This document shows, in pieces, positions 3,086-53,656 of a DNA stretch of 64,000 nt. The notes under the pieces were generated by a model. The model ran no database searches. It worked only from the letters and a program-made list of their open reading frames with translations, and was not told where the DNA came from. Position 1 is the first letter of the stretch, and every line of letters starts with the position of its first letter. Both the position numbers and the translations under genes were made by a program. This DNA comes from Escherichia coli (GTDB taxonomy: Bacteria > Pseudomonadota > Gammaproteobacteria > Enterobacterales > Enterobacteriaceae), in assembly GCF_003018115.1 (NCBI RefSeq), contig NZ_CP027457.1. The stretch is one strand, 5' to 3'.

Positions 3086-4101
3086 AGATCCACCCCGTAA
3101 ATCCAGTCAGTGTTTGTCAGGTCGAGTTTTGGTTTGCCGACTGTCACGCCAGCCTGTTGCTTGTTCCGGTTGATTTCGAGCTGGGTCCACTTGTCGCGGA
3201 GTTTGGCCGGACTCAGCACGTTACCGGACCAGAAGTTGTCCTGGCAGGCCCAGCGGAACAGTACACACATGTCGCGGTGGTTACGTCCATCACGTTCACG
3301 CATCAGACGGATATCGTTAGCCCACCCTGCAAAATTCGGTTTTCTGGCTGATGGCGCGATGGTCTTCACCATGTCAAACATCCACTCTGCGGCGGTCAGG
3401 TCTTCTGCTGTCCCCCACTTGCTGCCGCTCTGAATCGCAGCATCCGCTTTCACCACAGGAAGGTCGTTTTCTGGCAGGTCAGAGGATTCGCCAGAATTCT
3501 CGGACGAATAAGGTTTTATATTGTCTTTTGTTAGTTTGTCTTTTGTGTTTACCTGATTCGGGTAAGTGCCTTTACCTGATTTGGGTAAACTTTTCTTACC
3601 TGATTCAGGTAAATTTACCTCTTTCAGGTAAACTTTATTTTTCTTACCTGATTCGGGTAATTTTGACCATTCCCTGACCACATTATTAATGCCGATATTC
3701 CGCCCGCTCTGAATAAAAATCCCACGCTTTACCAGAACACTTTTTGCAGCAGAACACTTGTGCGGCAATATCCCGGTCAACTCGGAAAGTTGCTCGTTGC
3801 TCACCCAATCCAGTTTTTTATTAAAGCCATATGTTTTGCGCATGACAGCCAGGAAGACCAGAAGCTGGTGCTGTGTTAATCCGGCCAGCATTACAGCTTC
3901 CAGCAACTCATTTGCAATGCGCGTATAACCATCATCGAGATCTGCCACGCGCGGCTCCTTTTGTGCCGCATCCGGCACTGGAAAATTGAATATCTCAGCA
4001 GTGTTTGCCATAATTCCTCCCGCAATGAGTGTGTTACGATTTGCACCTGAAAGTCGGTTCTGTTGCCGCAGACCGACTTTCGCCATTTTTGAACCTGTCA
4101 T
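3082..4101 (-). CDS. O: Replication initiator O-like protein (lambda O-type N-terminal iteron-binding domain, divergent C-terminus)
   Basis: N-terminal VADLDDGYTRIANELLEAVMLAGLTQHQLLVFLAVMRKTYGFNK resembles lambda O; the gene contains the iteron array; the 4-nt overlap with P is typical. Confidence 0.85.
   Translation of the reverse strand: MTGSKMAKVGLRQQNRLSGANRNTLIAGGIMANTAEIFNFPVPDAAQKEPRVADLDDGYTRIANELLEAVMLAGLTQHQLLVFLAVMRKTYGFNKKLDWVSNEQLSELTGILPHKCSAAKSVLVKRGIFIQSGRNIGINNVVREWSKLPESGKKNKVYLKEVNLPESGKKSLPKSGKGTYPNQVNTKDKLTKDNIKPYSSENSGESSDLPENDLPVVKADAAIQSGSKWGTAEDLTAAEWMFDMVKTIAPSARKPNFAGWANDIRLMRERDGRNHRDMCVLFRWACQDNFWSGNVLSPAKLRDKWTQLEINRNKQQAGVTVGKPKLDLTNTDWIYGVDL
3550..3660. repeat. 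Replication origin iterons: five copies of about 16 bp TACCTGATTCGGGTAA (each TACC-N8-GGTA dyad) inside the O gene, next to an AT-rich stretch (about 3490-3545)
   Basis: Directly visible copies starting near 3550, 3573, 3597, 3616 and 3645; the same arrangement as ori-lambda inside O. Confidence 0.65.
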
Positions 4102-47632: not shown

Positions 47633-48040
47633 GTGTCGAATCCTTATCCAAAACAAGAGGTAACTCTCATGCTTCATACTGCCAATCCCGTCATCAAACA
47701 CAAAGCCGGTTTGCTCAATCTGGCTGAAGAACTCAGCAACGTATCAAAAGCTTGTAAAATCATGGGCGTTTCGCGTGATACGTTTTATCGTTACCGCGAA
47801 CTGGTCGCTGAAGGCGGTGTGGATGCGCAGATTAATCGTAGTCGCCGCGCTCCTAACCTTAAGAACCGTACCGATGAGGCAACTGAACAGGCTGTTGTTG
47901 ATTACGCCGTCGCTTTCCCGACACATGGTCAGCACCGGGCCAGCAACGAGCTGCGTAAACAGGAGGTTTTTATCTCCGACAGTGGTGTCCGTTCTGTCTG
48001 GTTACTCCATAACCTTGAGAATCTCAAAAGACGATACTGA
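47633..48040 (+). pseudogene. ybbD: Transposase N-terminal fragment (IS481-like HTH region), ybbD-like remnant
   Basis: 135-aa ORF resembling the HTH region of IS481-type transposases (VSRDTFYRYRELVAEGG...INRSRRAPN); no catalytic domain follows. Confidence 0.5.
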
Positions 48041-48094
48041 ACAAATTTTATCAGGTGACGTTCCGTAAAAAGTTGTATGGAGTTCTCGATGCAG

Positions 48095-48190
48095 TCGGCG
48101 CGACTATCAGTACCCCCGCTGAACCCTGGACTATCGGGCCGCCGTACTGGGGCATGTCACCCTGGCGTGCCGCTGGTTTTCCGCTAATGG
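48095..48190 (-). pseudogene. Orphan Rhs 5'-end fragment (start codon mutated ATG to ATT)
   Basis: Reverse strand encodes ...[31 protein letters not shown]..., a degenerate copy of the RhsD N-terminus ([32 protein letters not shown]); roughly 80% nucleotide identity to 53158-53228 by eye. Confidence 0.5.
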
Positions 48191-48554: not shown

Positions 48555-49046
48555 TTACTCTGCACAAGCATCAGGCAATCCAGCTCCAATATTTGTTATA
48601 AAATAATGCGTAACATTAATTTCACCAACAAAAAAAAGGTTTACGCTATCCCCTTGCCCTGGTATTTTACCATATTTACACCACACTTTTTTTGTATCTG
48701 GATCATTCTCTGATACGATTTTCGCCACTTGTTCCCTGGCCCTCACTGTCAATGTTTTCTTAAACCTACCCCCATCATCATTTGTTAGGGAAAAATAAGA
48801 AAAAAAATAATCATCTTCTACATTTGTGTATATTGATATATCCACCGCTACGTGCGGAAAAAAATCTGGGAGCCATGTAAAAACTCCATCATTTTCTGGT
48901 ATTGCCATATAGTTTATGTAATGTTTACTTACAAGAGATTCATCTTTGTATAAATAAAGATAAGTAATTACGCATAAAACAACAATGATTATAATAGCAA
49001 AAATAAATATTATCATCTTTGATAGATTACTTGAGATAGCCAGCAT
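48555..49046 (-). CDS. Probable Rhs immunity protein (N-terminal TM segment)
   Basis: AT-rich ORF immediately downstream of, and overlapping, the rhsD 3' end; hydrophobic N-terminus [22 protein letters not shown]. Confidence 0.6.
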
Positions 49047-52000
49047 CTTGTAAAGCCTTTATCGTTTTTTTATGCTCTGGATTAATATAATCACTACATC
49101 TATCTGAGCAATCTGTTGTTGATGGACATGTCAACCCATGGTCATTTACAGCCAAGTCTTTTTTATTATCTTCAATCATTTCAGAATGGGATAGCTTTAC
49201 TTTTCTGCCGTACATACCGAACAGATTTAACCCGTAATCTCTAATCTCTTTTTCATAACCCAGCCCTTTCGCCGATCGGCTAACACCAGCGTCATTTAAT
49301 TTAGACACTCGACAAAATGCCATACAATGGAAAAATTGATCAGTCCCACCTAAATTTAATCTCTTCATATCTTCATAAGTATCAGATAATATATCCCATG
49401 CTCTTTGATGGTTTAGTTGATCTTTTCTTCTTATTAGCGCTACATCTGCGGGACTTAACCCTAATGGATCAATACCATTCACCGGATTCAGCGGATACGC
49501 ATACAGACTCCATCCCCCCTCCAGCCCTATCGGGTCCTGAGTGATATACCGCCCCTGCAACGGATCGTAGTACCGGTTCCGGTTGTAGTACAGCCCCGAC
49601 TCCGTATCATACTGCTGCCCCGGCAGCCGGTACGGCTGGTGCAGGTGATGCGGGTTCTCCTCATTAAGCTGGTTGCCCCATTCATCATATTCCGCGCTCC
49701 ACGCCGTATTGCCGTCTTCACTGATAAGCGCCAGCGGCAGGCCCCGGTGGTCACAGTGATAAAGATGTATTTTTCGCTCAGGCAAATAAACCGGCTCTAT
49801 CTGTGCCGCCAGCCGCTCCACCGTCAGCCCGCACTGCGCAAGCCACTGGCGGCTTTCACTGCTCACGCAGTTTGCCCGGATTTCCCCCTCCAGCCTGTCC
49901 AGCAGCCCCACCAGTTCAGCCGGGAACACCACACCGTGACCGTCCTCACTCCCTTCCTGCTGTAACTTCTCCACCAGGCTTCGCCGCTGCGCTTTATCCA
50001 GTTCGCCGTTCTCTGTCTCGATGCGGATGAGCGGCGCGAAGCTCCCCGGCTGGTATACCGTCTGGATACGCGTGGTATCGGTCTGTACCGTCGTCAGCCA
50101 GTCGCCGTCCCATCCGTACCACGTCACCTCCGGTTTACGCGACAGCGACATCCATCCCGTCAGGTCACTCTCGCGACGCCACACCCGTTTCCCCGTCCGG
50201 CGGCCCAGCGGGTCGTAGAGGTAGCGGCTCTCGACCAGTGGCTCCTCATGCTGTATCCGCGTGTAAAACACCAGCCGGTGCTGGCTGTCGTAGTGGTAGT
50301 GGTGGGTCCGCTCGTCGTCCGTCCGTATCACACCCGTCGGGATGCGGTCCGTCTTCTCCGTCAGCCTGCCGTATTCATCGTGGCGGTAGACATAGTGCGC
50401 ATCCTCCGCGATGCGGTTATCCGGCCACACTGTGAGTGTACTGTCCGGGTGCAGCTCCGGGTCCGGCAGCCGGTTGCCCGCCGGGTCCGTGGCATACGGG
50501 ATGCGGATGTCCAGGTCTGGTGCGAGGGTGCGCACACTCTCCAGCCTGCCCGTGGCGCTGTAGCCGTATTCCCGCGTCTGTCGCGGGCCGCTGATGCGCA
50601 CCAGGTCGCCGTTGTCACTCCACCCGTAGTCACGGTCATATACCAGGCTGTTCAGGTGCTGGCTCTGTAACTGGCCTGCGGGGGTGTATGTGCTGGTCAG
50701 TTCGTATGCGGCATTACTGCCTGCCATGCTGCCGAAGCTGCGCACCGTCTCACGGTGCAGCCTGTCCCGCGTATACTCGACCAGCGGCGTCCCGCCCAGC
50801 TTCATTCCCGCCAGGTAACCGCTGCCATACGTCAGCCACTCCACCGGCGGCAGGCTGTCCGGCGTGACGCGGTTTGCCAGCCCCTGCTCGTTGTATGCGT
50901 GTTTCGTCTCATGCTGCCACAGCAGTTCCCCCGTCTCCGGGTTCTCCACCGTCTGGCGTTCGCCGGTCAGGCGGCCTTTATCGTCATAGCCATAGTGGAC
51001 GGCAACACGGTGGCCTTCGCTCAGGTGGCTGATGTCTGTCAGCCAGCCGTGGCCATCATACTGCCACTGCTCTGCCGGTTCGCCGTTCACCGTGCGGTGA
51101 GTGATACGGTCCGATTCATCGTAGTACCAGAGGGTGACAAGTCCCTCATCCTCACTCTGTGTGAGTTTTCCTGTCAGGTCATAATGATAACGCTGCGTCC
51201 GCCCGTCAAAGCCGCCCTGCTGTACCAGGCGGTCCAGCGCATCGTAACTGAAATCACTGTGGCTGCCGTTCTCGTTAGTCAGACTGATGACACGTCCGGC
51301 AACATCGTACTCCATACTGCGCGTCAGCCCGCCCTGCGTGGTGCTGACCGCCTTTCCCCACGCATCGTACTGTGTCTCGCTCCGGTTGCCGTCCGGAGTG
51401 ATAACGGCAGTCAGGTCGCCTGCGGCGTTGTACTCATACTGCGTTTCACGGCCCTGTGCGTCTTTCACCGAGGTTAACCGGCCACGGTTGTCATAGCGGC
51501 GGTAACGGCTGATACCTTCCTCGCGGTGGACCGCCGTCATCTGGCCGAAGCGGTCGTATTCATAGCGGGTCTGGTAGCCCGAGCAGTCGGTGAACGCCAG
51601 CAACTGCCCGTAGCGGCTCCACGTCATCTGCCGGGTGCTGCCCGTCGCATCTGTTGTCGTGGCCGGTAATTCACTGTGCGGATTATCATAAGCATACCGG
51701 ATGACGTCCCCGCTGCGCGATGTCTCCGATACCAGCCTGCCCGGTTCATCATATGCCCGGCGGCTCTCCAGCCCGTCCGGGGACACCACCGCCGTCAGCT
51801 GGTTCCCGTCGTTATAGTAAAATTTCGTCTCCCGCCCGTCCGGTGTGGTGATGTCCGTGATATCGCCGGACACCACATTCAGACCGTACTCTGTCCGCCG
51901 TCCCGCCGCGTCCGTCTGCGCCGTGAGCCTTCCTGCCGCGTCATACCCGCTGTGCGTGACGCTGCCGTCCGCCAGTTCTTTTTTCACCACCCGTTTCAGC

Positions 52001-53256
52001 CCGCCTTCACCTTCTGTATGCAGCACCTCACGCCGGTTCAGGCTGTCGGTGACGGTGATGCGGTCCTGCTCATAAAGATAGCGGTAACTTAACCCTGCCG
52101 GGTTCAGTTGCTCCACCACCCGCCCCGTATCGTCGTAGCGGTAGCGCATCTCCGGCCTTCCCGCATAACGGTGCGCCACCATCCGGCCCGGGTGCTGCGC
52201 GTCATACGTGAAAGCGCGCACCTGCGTATTGCTGCGGTCATATACCGCCAGCAGTTCACCGGCTTCCGTATACGTGTACCGCACCAGTGGCGCAGCGGGC
52301 AGGCTCTCCGGGTATGCCGGGTCGTGCATCAGCCACACCGCCGAAAGGCGGATACCCCTGTCGGGGCCGTATTCGGTACCGGGCAGTGTGTCGGGGAACG
52401 CTGAGGCTGAGAGAGGGCGGGAACTGTCAGAAGAAGATAGCGAAGAGGTGCGGGCCTCTTCCGCACGCTGCGCCTGCGTGGTCAGCACCAGACGGAACTC
52501 CCGCCCGGCACCGTCCGTCACGCCGGTGATTTCCCCGGCCAGGTCGCCTGCGGCCTCACGCCGGTACGTCAGCGTCCGCCCGAAGCGGTCCGCCATCCCG
52601 GTAAGCACCCGGTACGGCGGCAGCGGCGCTGGCAGTACGTCCTCAGCACCCGGCACCCGCTCAGACCACCCCAGTATCCACCACGGCCCCTGTGCGCTGT
52701 TGGTCGCCAGGTAAAGATGCGGACTTAACCGGATATCCGGCGGCAGCGCCCCCCACAGCCGCGCCAGCGTGTGGCCGTCCGGCTGTGCTGCCTTACCACC
52801 GCGCACCAGCCACATTGACTCGCTGCGGCTGTACACCGCCTCACCCGGCAGCAGCGGCTCAAAGTGAATGCTCCGCCCGCCGTTGTCGTTGAGTATCAGT
52901 CCGTCATCACGTAGCTGTAAGCGGATATCAGAAGGCGCTTTCCAGCCGGGGCCGAAAAAGCCCACCGGTGCAGGCGTCCGGGTCCGGTAGCTGCTGTAGG
53001 TGCGGGAGAGAATGAACGGCAGCGGGCCGTGCAGCGCAAGGTCCGTCTCGCCGGGCAGCACCTTCGCCCCCAGCAGCGGATTTACCGGGTTGCCCGAAGT
53101 CATCCCGCCCGGACACACCGAGCACGCCACGCCAGTTGGCGCGCCAATTCTTACACCTGCCGACCCCTGGACAATGGGACCGCCATACTGAGTCATATCT
53201 CCCTGACGCGCCGCTGGTTTTCCGCTCATATAAAGTGCCCTTTTAGTTTTGTTCAT
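49027..53256 (-). CDS. rhsD: Rhs-family protein with YD-repeat core and variable AT-rich C-terminal tip after the DPxGL motif
   Basis: 1409-aa ORF; N-terminus [26 protein letters not shown] (the track start lies 9 codons upstream of MSGKP, making the preferred start about 53229); YD repeats; DPLGL boundary followed by a low-GC tip. Confidence 0.92.
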
Positions 53257-53656
53257 ATCCCTGTGTTAGCAACAAAAAAATAAAATGACACACAAGACCA
53301 GCTAATGTATTTATATATTTTTCACATAAACTTATTTGTTCTCAATCAACAACAACTGTTATTACAGGTCACTTTCAATATTTTATTAAACTAAAATTTT
53401 TAGCACAGATGAATTCATCATCAACAAATTCACTATATGGATAATATCCATTCAACGCATATGATTTATGATTTTATTAGTCTGAGTTATTTTTGTAGGG
53501 CTATATTTAAAATTATTAAACTCCACCGATTCAGATTAATATCAGCAATAGAAAAACAGGAAATCACCAATTCAATAACATCATCAATGAAACATATTGT
53601 AGAATTAATTTAAACAAGGCGTTCCATTCAACCAGAACGCCCCTTATTTACTCTCA

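Follow-up and report, generated by a model that had tools for sequence, protein, structure and literature searches.

The toxin domains most similar to the one described here belong to prok-SAA, a family defined within the Lipocone superfamily by Burroughs, Nicastro and Aravind (eLife 2025; PMC12419801), who described it as a tip of polymorphic toxins, including Rhs toxins. The active site predicted for the superfamily lies at the opening of the cone and comprises His/Glu/Asp residues, a polar residue that ends helix 3 (H3), a further polar position downstream and a Gly cap, and prok-SAA domains are predicted, by analogy with TelC and PTDSS1/2, to act as phosphoesterases or transesterases on lipid head groups (PMC12419801). 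According to the same survey, all immunity proteins of Lipocone toxins are transmembrane (TM) proteins or lipoproteins, and prok-SAA and Min-Wnt toxins are paired with a Cys4 "helix + four strands" immunity domain carrying four absolutely conserved Cys residues (PMC12419801). Two further toxins bear on the comparison. TelC, paired with TipC in Streptococcus intermedius, is an LXG effector of the type VII secretion system (T7SS) and a lipid II phosphatase (Whitney et al., eLife 2017; PMC5555719); it is a Lipocone member whose toxicity is confined to sites outside the cytoplasm and which strips lipid II of its head group (PMC12419801). BteO, with its partner BtiO, is a type VI secretion system (T6SS) effector of Bacteroides fragilis (He et al., PNAS 2025; PMC12541434). 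It is toxic only in the periplasm, with elongation, blebbing, lysis, an altered muropeptide composition and binding to the OmpA C-domain, and it was called non-enzymatic since sacculi and muropeptides were not hydrolysed (PMC12541434). Here we describe the C-terminal tip of an Rhs protein, and the small gene ybbD behind it, at the rhsD locus of a 64,000-nucleotide stretch of Escherichia coli DNA (contig NZ_CP027457.1), which as a whole we call the window.

By profile comparison and predicted structure, the tip is a soluble SAA-like helical cone of the prok-SAA family in the Lipocone superfamily, and by its sequence organization the locus is an ordinary, complete Rhs polymorphic toxin/immunity cassette. 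Tip residues are numbered from the Ser that follows DPLGL (Ser = 1), and the tip corresponds to Rhs residues S1268-K1409. The features that carry the argument are as follows.

49030-49455, minus strand: 142-residue toxin tip, a predicted prok-SAA/Lipocone-fold domain (profiles, AlphaFold2 model, Foldseek)
49135-49341, minus strand: predicted tip helices H2-H4 with D39, H43, C44, C48, E70, D73, D96, D100, N104 and G107 (translation, conservation, model)
49456-49485, minus strand: PxxxxDPxGL core/tip boundary, the presumed autoproteolysis site (translation, GC break)
49027-53229, minus strand: full-length Rhs protein ("RHS element core protein"), rhsD locus (open reading frame [ORF]; RHS_core, Pfam repeats)
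48555-49046, minus strand: ybbD, candidate immunity gene, 163 amino acids, intact (NF011298, RefSeq "YbbD family protein")
49027-49046, minus strand: 20-nucleotide overlap of the Rhs 3' end with the start of ybbD (ORFs, RefSeq annotation)
48948-49016, minus strand: N-terminal TM anchor of YbbD, residues 11-33 (hydropathy, model)
48800-48807, minus strand: run of eight T (T8) in ybbD, T7 in K-12 (pairwise DNA alignment)

The sole informative family match of the tip was Pfam SAA (PF00277; E 2.9e-4, 21.6 bits), and a sequence search of the PDB with the tip returned SAA for all three of its best matches, but weakly. Comparisons with the published family were much stronger. Against a hidden Markov model (HMM) of 32 prok-SAA sequences from the published supplement, with the tip's two close relatives (HAU8267270.1 and WP_074823867.1) left out, the tip scored 60.1 bits over profile positions 4-103, whereas the best of 1000 shuffles reached 7.1 bits. 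Alignment of the tip clade with hhalign gave a probability of 99.3% (E 3e-20) to prok-SAA and of 93.9% (E 1.6e-7) to the published animal SAA set, and a joint profile of tip and prok-SAA sequences retrieved only SAA chains from the PDB, at E values down to 1e-21. The two relatives that had been left out, both in the published prok-SAA list, share 59% and 61% identity with the tip across the aligned domain, and the sequence of HAU8267270.1 is that of a Kluyvera Rhs orphan tip (P0020) that we found independently. Neither the exact E. coli tip nor the word "Escherichia" was found in the supplements of the Lipocone paper. A profile built from seven relatives of the tip (46-92% identical, DPLGL removed) and searched against 1.84 billion representative proteins found 187 of them at E <= 1e-3. 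Pfam SAA matched 104 of the 129 tip homologues scanned, which were those of at least 100 residues (best E 8e-28), and RHS repeats were present in 22 of the homologues.

The predicted structure led to the same family. AlphaFold2 modeled the tip with a predicted local distance difference test (pLDDT) score of 87.8 and a predicted template modeling (pTM) score of 0.81, placing helices at residues 2-33, 39-52, 56-78 and 90-107, plus short ones at 116-123 and 129-138. When 350,542 PDB chains were searched with this model using Foldseek, the seven best matches were crystals of human SAA1 and mouse SAA3 (probability 0.99-1.0, TM-score 0.67-0.70), and at the eighth match the probability dropped to 0.09. 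The animal proteins (SAA1 and SAA3; 4ip8, 4q5g and 6pxz) share a homologous four-helix cone with the tip at a Foldseek probability of 1.0, and their D-x3-H, E and D-x3-N-x2-G positions align with it, although identity is only ~17-19%. In contrast to the tip, vertebrate SAA is a secreted, apolipoprotein-like acute-phase protein without the Cys pairs, an immunity partner or an established enzymatic activity. Compared with prok-SAA, the tip has the same helix pattern, the same Asp/His/Glu/Asp/Asn/Gly set and the same use as an Rhs tip; it differs by an extra Cys (C110), a ~20-residue C-terminal helical tail, the motif VNDHGL and a YbbD_head partner. We consider it highly probable, from sequence profiles and model together, that the tip is a homologue of prok-SAA. 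A sequence-only reading of this DNA had stated that the tip could not be assigned to a known fold, a statement that the HMM, hhalign and Foldseek results overturn.

The conserved columns include positions that would form an active site. Across the 129 homologues, D39, H43, C44, C48, E70, D73, D96, D100, N104, G107 and C120 were each at least 90% conserved, and in an alignment with the published prok-SAA set D39, H43, D100 and G107 were invariant, with E70 and N104 at least 90% conserved. On the model the polar set is distributed over three helices: H43 on helix 2, E70 and D73 on helix 3, and D100, N104 and G107 on helix 4. As placed by the translation and the model, the polar positions on H2, H3 and H4 match the predicted active-site pattern of the superfamily. 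These residues also bear on the possibility that the tip is a non-catalytic lipid binder or membrane disruptor, whose cone would sequester a lipid or insert, much as SAA binds retinol and lipoprotein lipids. A mouse SAA3 crystal among the top Foldseek matches (6py0) holds retinol in its cone, and the superfamily model likewise puts a lipid tail within the cone (PMC12419801). However, the tip is hydrophilic (best 19-residue hydropathy mean 0.55, with no TM-like window), and its conserved residues are polar or acidic and sit at the predicted cone opening rather than being hydrophobic. We judge a purely lipid-binding tip to be improbable.

The tip model also resembles a described effector. PDB entry 9UU0 is maltose-binding protein (MBP) fused to BteO from residue 83 to the end, and we infer that the match to this entry is to its BteO part, because the list of matches holds no other MBP chain. 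BteO toxicity is abolished by the substitutions R143A/H144A, H167A/E168A, D187A and D191A (PMC12541434), and the spacing of its His...Glu...D-x3-D residues resembles H43...E70...D96-x3-D100 of the tip, which may serve as a lead. BteO differs in its architecture, with nine helices, a beta-hairpin and a TM helix of its own at the N terminus. From its RH...HE...DxxxD pattern we had suspected that BteO is a Lipocone of the CapCone-1 group, and we dropped this candidate when the CapCone-1 profile (published supplement) missed 9UU0 in the PDB. Because both the prok-SAA and the CapCone-1 profiles miss BteO, its link to the tip consists of fold similarity and residue spacing.

The behavior of BteO raises the alternative that the tip is a non-enzymatic envelope toxin, whose cone would bind the peptidoglycan-binding C-domain of an OmpA-family protein and disturb wall homeostasis, with YbbD as a decoy of that target. 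BteO itself offers precedents in its periplasm-only action, its OmpA C-domain binding and its periplasmic immunity protein, and mammalian SAA has been reported to bind E. coli OmpA (cited in PMC12419801). Yet the combined prok-SAA and tip profile misses BteO in the PDB sequence search, and strict conservation of Asp/His/Glu/Asp/Asn in a family of ~20-30% identity is more typical of catalysis. Moreover, the BteO study tested peptidoglycan hydrolase/amidase activity only, not lipid-linked substrates, and the immunity protein of BteO mimics the OmpA C-domain, whereas the YbbD model does not. Weighing both sides, we regard a non-enzymatic envelope toxin as unlikely.

The Rhs protein that carries the tip is complete. 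The longest Rhs ORF spans 49027-53256 (minus strand) and opens with an ATG at 53256; the protein likely starts at Met10 (53229), because the NCBIfam RHS_core match begins at residue 10. The ATG at 53256 adds nine residues (MNKTKRALY), which lie outside both the RHS_core model and the RefSeq annotation. RHS_core covered residues 10-1267 with 2737 bits (cut-off 2000), and Pfam placed RHS_repeat in 13 stretches (E 5e-69), along with RHS and DUF6531. Over 1258 residues the core is 95% identical at the protein level to K-12 RhsD, and likeness to K-12 RhsD and RhsC stops at residue 1267, which is also the end of the NCBIfam Rhs_assc_core domain. Past DPLGL come the 142 codons of the tip (49455-49030, minus strand) and a TAA stop (49029-49027).

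Base composition breaks at the same point. GC content is 0.631 in the core (0.751 at third codon positions), 0.369 in the tip (0.275) and 0.327 in the downstream gene ybbD (0.244). The fall is complete within ~120 nucleotides of DPLGL (0.60, 0.50, 0.40 and 0.32 in 60-nucleotide windows), and only 5.4% of 426-nucleotide windows in the whole 64-kb window are at least as rich in AT as the tip. The sequence-only reading had described a sharp GC drop over about 150 codons after DPLGL, a small AT-rich gene overlapping the Rhs stop and a TM segment at the N terminus of that gene. All three descriptions agree with our measurements: GC falls from 63% to 37% over the last 142 codons, the small gene has 163 codons at 33% GC and shares 20 nucleotides with the Rhs gene, and its TM segment is given below. 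Its further claim of an exchangeable toxin/immunity cassette is borne out by the break at PxxxxDPxGL, by the orphan module in K-12 and by the YbbD_head genes behind related tips. Separately, we observed that the ~400 nucleotides 5' of the Rhs start (53230-53650) are very AT-rich (GC 0.25-0.36), adjoining a gene of 63% GC.

The gene that overlaps the tip encodes a member of a named family. NCBIfam NF011298 matched YbbD over residues 1-163 of 163 with 378.9 bits (cut-off 326). Pfam PF26610 (YbbD_head) is recorded on YbbD homologues, and YbbD of the window is assigned to it through those homologues. A second NCBIfam match, NF007301 (E 8e-17 to YbbD), was guessed to represent K-12 YbfC, a guess that we dropped when BLASTP of YbbD against YbfC gave no match at E 1e-3. 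The start of ybbD at ATG 49046 is the one used by RefSeq in a 99.8%-identical genome, with the same overlap, and an AAGG lies 9 nucleotides 5' of it. An alternative ATG at 49016 is without an AAGG-type motif and would give a 10-nucleotide gap instead of the overlap.

YbbD has a single strongly hydrophobic stretch, with a best 19-residue Kyte-Doolittle mean of 3.37 over residues 12-30, and its model has a helix over residues 2-35. All of its relatives have Lys or Arg residues ahead of the TM helix and, behind it, residues that are neutral or acidic. This charge pattern suggests an N-in, C-out topology, in which the C-terminal part is periplasmic. A Cys pair in the soluble domain (C123/C161) is conserved in most, but not all, relatives.

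Given a tip and a candidate immunity protein side by side, we asked how consistently such genes occur together. YbbD_head genes lie directly 3' of SAA-like Rhs tips in Kluyvera (loci L004-L006), at locus L008 and at loci L009/L010, and the tip of L008 is ~30% identical to that of the window. At another locus (L007), an alignable YbbD-like protein follows an SAA-like tip directly. In all, at least four other lineages have a YbbD-type gene directly behind an SAA-like Rhs tip, and tips of 30-65% identity, from Kluyvera and from metagenomic Rhs genes, are again directly trailed by YbbD_head genes. The YbbD_head genes begin 0-10 nucleotides past the tip or overlap it, the overlaps among relatives being 1-4 nucleotides. 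Two more distant loci have other partners. At L012 the neighbor is a TM protein in which a similar WLP motif occurs, and at L011 (~3150-3650, plus strand) an uncalled ORF directly after the tip begins MSRSTLFSFALLALSGC and has a lipoprotein lipobox; judging from this sequence, it is a candidate lipoprotein immunity gene missed by the gene caller. At a further locus (L013) the contig ends shortly past the toxin gene.

The tips of some relatives (L009/L010, 4933-5667; L004, 3295-5135) sit in orphan Rhs tip arrays, which also hold TseH with Imm58, an Ntox16 fragment and further RHS C-terminal fragments. Because its relatives sit in such arrays, the SAA-like module can be viewed as one interchangeable cartridge among many.

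Most characterized Rhs tips act in the cytoplasm. This general precedent would favor a cytoplasm-acting toxin, such as a nuclease or NADase, next to an unrelated small membrane protein. However, the tip had no match to nuclease, deaminase or ADP-ribosyltransferase families in Pfam or NCBIfam, its fold is SAA-like by Foldseek, and a membrane-anchored or lipoprotein neighbor is kept across divergent loci. A cytoplasmic target therefore seems highly improbable to us.

We propose instead the following sequence of events for the prok-SAA tip. By comparison with known Rhs and Tc proteins, the Rhs autoprotease would release the 142-residue tip, which would reach a target cell by contact-dependent delivery. 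The tip would then probably act in the target periplasm, at the inner membrane's outer face, and there cleave or exchange a lipid head group that is linked through phosphate. By analogy with TelC, an undecaprenyl-(pyro)phosphate-linked wall or polysaccharide intermediate such as lipid II would be the most plausible substrate. YbbD, with one N-in anchor and a periplasmic domain of ~125 residues, would most likely bind and block the tip and so spare siblings, a role suggested by its position, its topology and its conserved linkage to the tip. We hold the parts of this proposal with different confidence. Periplasmic action with YbbD as the immunity protein is probable, whereas for an enzymatic attack on a lipid head group, which is argued from analogy, the chances seem evenly divided. 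The chain as a whole, from a released prok-SAA tip through periplasmic head-group attack and a block by YbbD to mobility of the module, appears to us slightly more probable than its opposite.

Described systems offer partial models for such a mechanism. TelC resembles the proposal in its toxicity outside the cytoplasm only, its cleavage of a phosphate-linked head group and its outward-facing, membrane-anchored immunity protein. It differs in belonging to the ClaspCone-CapCone-TelC clade, without matching the tip directly in sequence, in its delivery by a Gram-positive T7SS instead of an Rhs cage, and in the unrelated fold of its immunity protein. Colicin M is a periplasmic phosphoesterase acting on undecaprenyl-pyrophosphate-linked peptidoglycan precursors, and its immunity protein Cmi is a periplasmic protein anchored in the inner membrane. 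Colicin M and Cmi would thus work as we propose for the tip and YbbD, with an unrelated fold and import via FhuA/TonB. The Lipocone paper also cites colicin M as a toxin that acts on lipid head groups (PMC12419801).

Several observations speak against one part or another of this proposal. The Pfam SAA score of the tip (21.6 bits) falls short of the gathering threshold of 30.8 bits; SAA homology is nevertheless well supported, because the HMM, hhalign, PDB-profile, homologue and Foldseek tests agree. The sNxxGR motif that marks the SAA-Wnt clade in H4 reads VNDHGL in the tip, with Asn and Gly kept and Arg replaced by Leu. The same replacement occurs across the whole Rhs-type subclade, and a few published prok-SAA members are likewise without the Arg. 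YbbD, with only two conserved Cys, is distinct from the Cys4 immunity domain paired with prok-SAA in the Lipocone paper. The tip has Cys pairs spaced i, i+4 (C44/C48 on H2 and C116/C120 on the fifth helix), and from their sequence positions they could equally be disulfide staples typical of exported proteins or a Zn(Cys)4 site; because a zinc site is possible, they are no proof of extracytoplasmic action. As to the delivery route, the Rhs N terminus gave only partial PAAR-like matches (Pfam E 0.009; NCBIfam E 0.1), and no T6SS genes were noticed beside the Rhs locus. The literature that we searched contained no experiment on prok-SAA toxins, the tip of the window included, and no functional study of ylbH, ybbD, rhsD or Rhs with lipid II was found in it.

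Comparison with K-12 placed the module in its local history. The tip of the window is not the tip of K-12 RhsD; it is that of the downstream K-12 orphan ylbH, whose tip protein is identical to it. The name rhsD used by the sequence-only reading is accordingly apt for the locus, which is flanked by ybbP on one side and ylbG/selU on the other, but not for the tip. In K-12 the order is rhsD (with a different tip), ybbC, ylbH, ybbD, ylbI and ylbG. In 150-nucleotide steps, the DNA of the window is 97-100% identical to K-12 ylbH-ybbD-ylbI-ylbG, from ~190 nucleotides upstream of DPLGL to position 48000, and the core DNA further upstream is 87-91% identical to K-12 rhsD. Between the two forms of ybbD there are four substitutions and one T lost from the T8 run in K-12; K-12 ybbD is a pseudogene because this loss shifts its reading frame. 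From its sequence, the T8 run could be a slippage-prone site at which immunity is switched off or on.

The two arrangements thus differ in that insertion of the rhsD tip and ybbC has parted the K-12 module, which has a frameshifted ybbD, from a full core, whereas the tip of the window stands on a complete Rhs protein and its ybbD is intact. Because of this alignment, we regard the module of the window as "armed" and its silent K-12 counterpart as an orphan that has been displaced. Read at the level of DNA, the comparison shows the tip and ybbD to have moved as a unit, with the rhsD-ybbC tip of K-12 the newer one and K-12 ybbD decayed. The arrangement follows a pattern known for Rhs genes, C-terminal displacement with orphan tips, which was reportedly described by Jackson et al. 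in 2009 and Koskiniemi et al. in 2014.

The module is widespread in the species. Of 5426 complete E. coli genomes, 2723 contained tip and ybbD at a coverage of at least 80%, in most cases with an identity of 95% or higher. In a spread sample of these genomes, the rows with full coverage divided evenly between a contiguous, window-like arrangement (4 of 8) and a K-12-like one (4 of 8). In these genomes, annotation of the tip gene goes no further than Rhs protein, and most often the gene downstream of it is called "hypothetical protein."

These data also bear on whether the cassette is a relic on an Rhs element that the strain neither expresses nor secretes. K-12 carries a core-less ylbH together with the frameshifted ybbD, apparently harmlessly, and a disused cassette would fit the lack of noticed T6SS genes adjoining the locus. 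It would also fit the promoter and terminator scans around the cassette, in which counts of promoter-like sites and terminators were not above those of shuffles; we therefore do not claim a separate ybbD promoter. In the window, however, neither reading frame is broken, the tip continues the frame of a core that is complete and all family-conserved residues are kept, and the module recurs at high identity in the genomes just counted. Disuse would, in any case, concern deployment and not what the proteins do. We give the idea of a disused cassette little chance.

The surroundings of the cassette are those of the rhsD locus. Read along the minus strand, they comprise in turn ybbP (past 53.6 kb), the Rhs gene, ybbD, an AT-rich spacer and ylbI, followed by ylbG on the plus strand; beyond ylbG lie selU/mnmH, allS, allA, allR and gcl. 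Two remnants adjoin the cassette.

48093-48188, minus strand: ylbI, a 32-codon remnant of an Rhs N terminus that marks the end of the Rhs element (translation, K-12 annotation)
47633-48040, plus strand: ylbG, a helix-turn-helix/transposase-like remnant

ylbI shares 87.5% identity with Rhs residues 10-41, and its presence with ylbG just past the cassette hints at a past rearrangement or a lost second Rhs gene. An Rfam scan of 47.5-53.8 kb gave no match, and neither the tip nor YbbD was matched by the PADLOC defense models.

Much of the framework for these results was in place already: Rhs cassettes are textbook knowledge, the prok-SAA family has been published with close relatives of the tip, and YbbD_head is in Pfam. 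What we add is modest. A very common E. coli tip, including K-12 ylbH, is identified from profiles and predicted structure as prok-SAA, and a fold is thereby named for the tip of a tip and immunity module present in about half of complete E. coli genomes. YbbD appears, from gene order across lineages, to be the conserved partner of the tip, unlike the immunity class reported for prok-SAA. With its frameshifted ybbD, K-12 would be a natural immunity-null target. Finally, the predicted structure of the tip resembles BteO.

SAA is a major acute-phase protein in humans, and what it does biochemically is still under debate. The window provides an intact, easily handled E. coli example with its natural immunity gene, in which the published prediction for SAA could be tested cheaply. 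We put forward tentatively, and with more doubt than confidence, the idea drawn from sequence and analogy that this tip, among the commonest Rhs tips of E. coli and silent in K-12 as ylbH, is an active SAA-homologous enzyme that kills by cleaving an undecaprenyl-phosphate-linked envelope precursor from the periplasmic side. If this were true, the same His/Glu/Asp opening would explain the mutations that abolish the toxicity of the "non-enzymatic" BteO, and the ancestral biochemical activity of the SAA family would for the first time be directly accessible to E. coli genetics.

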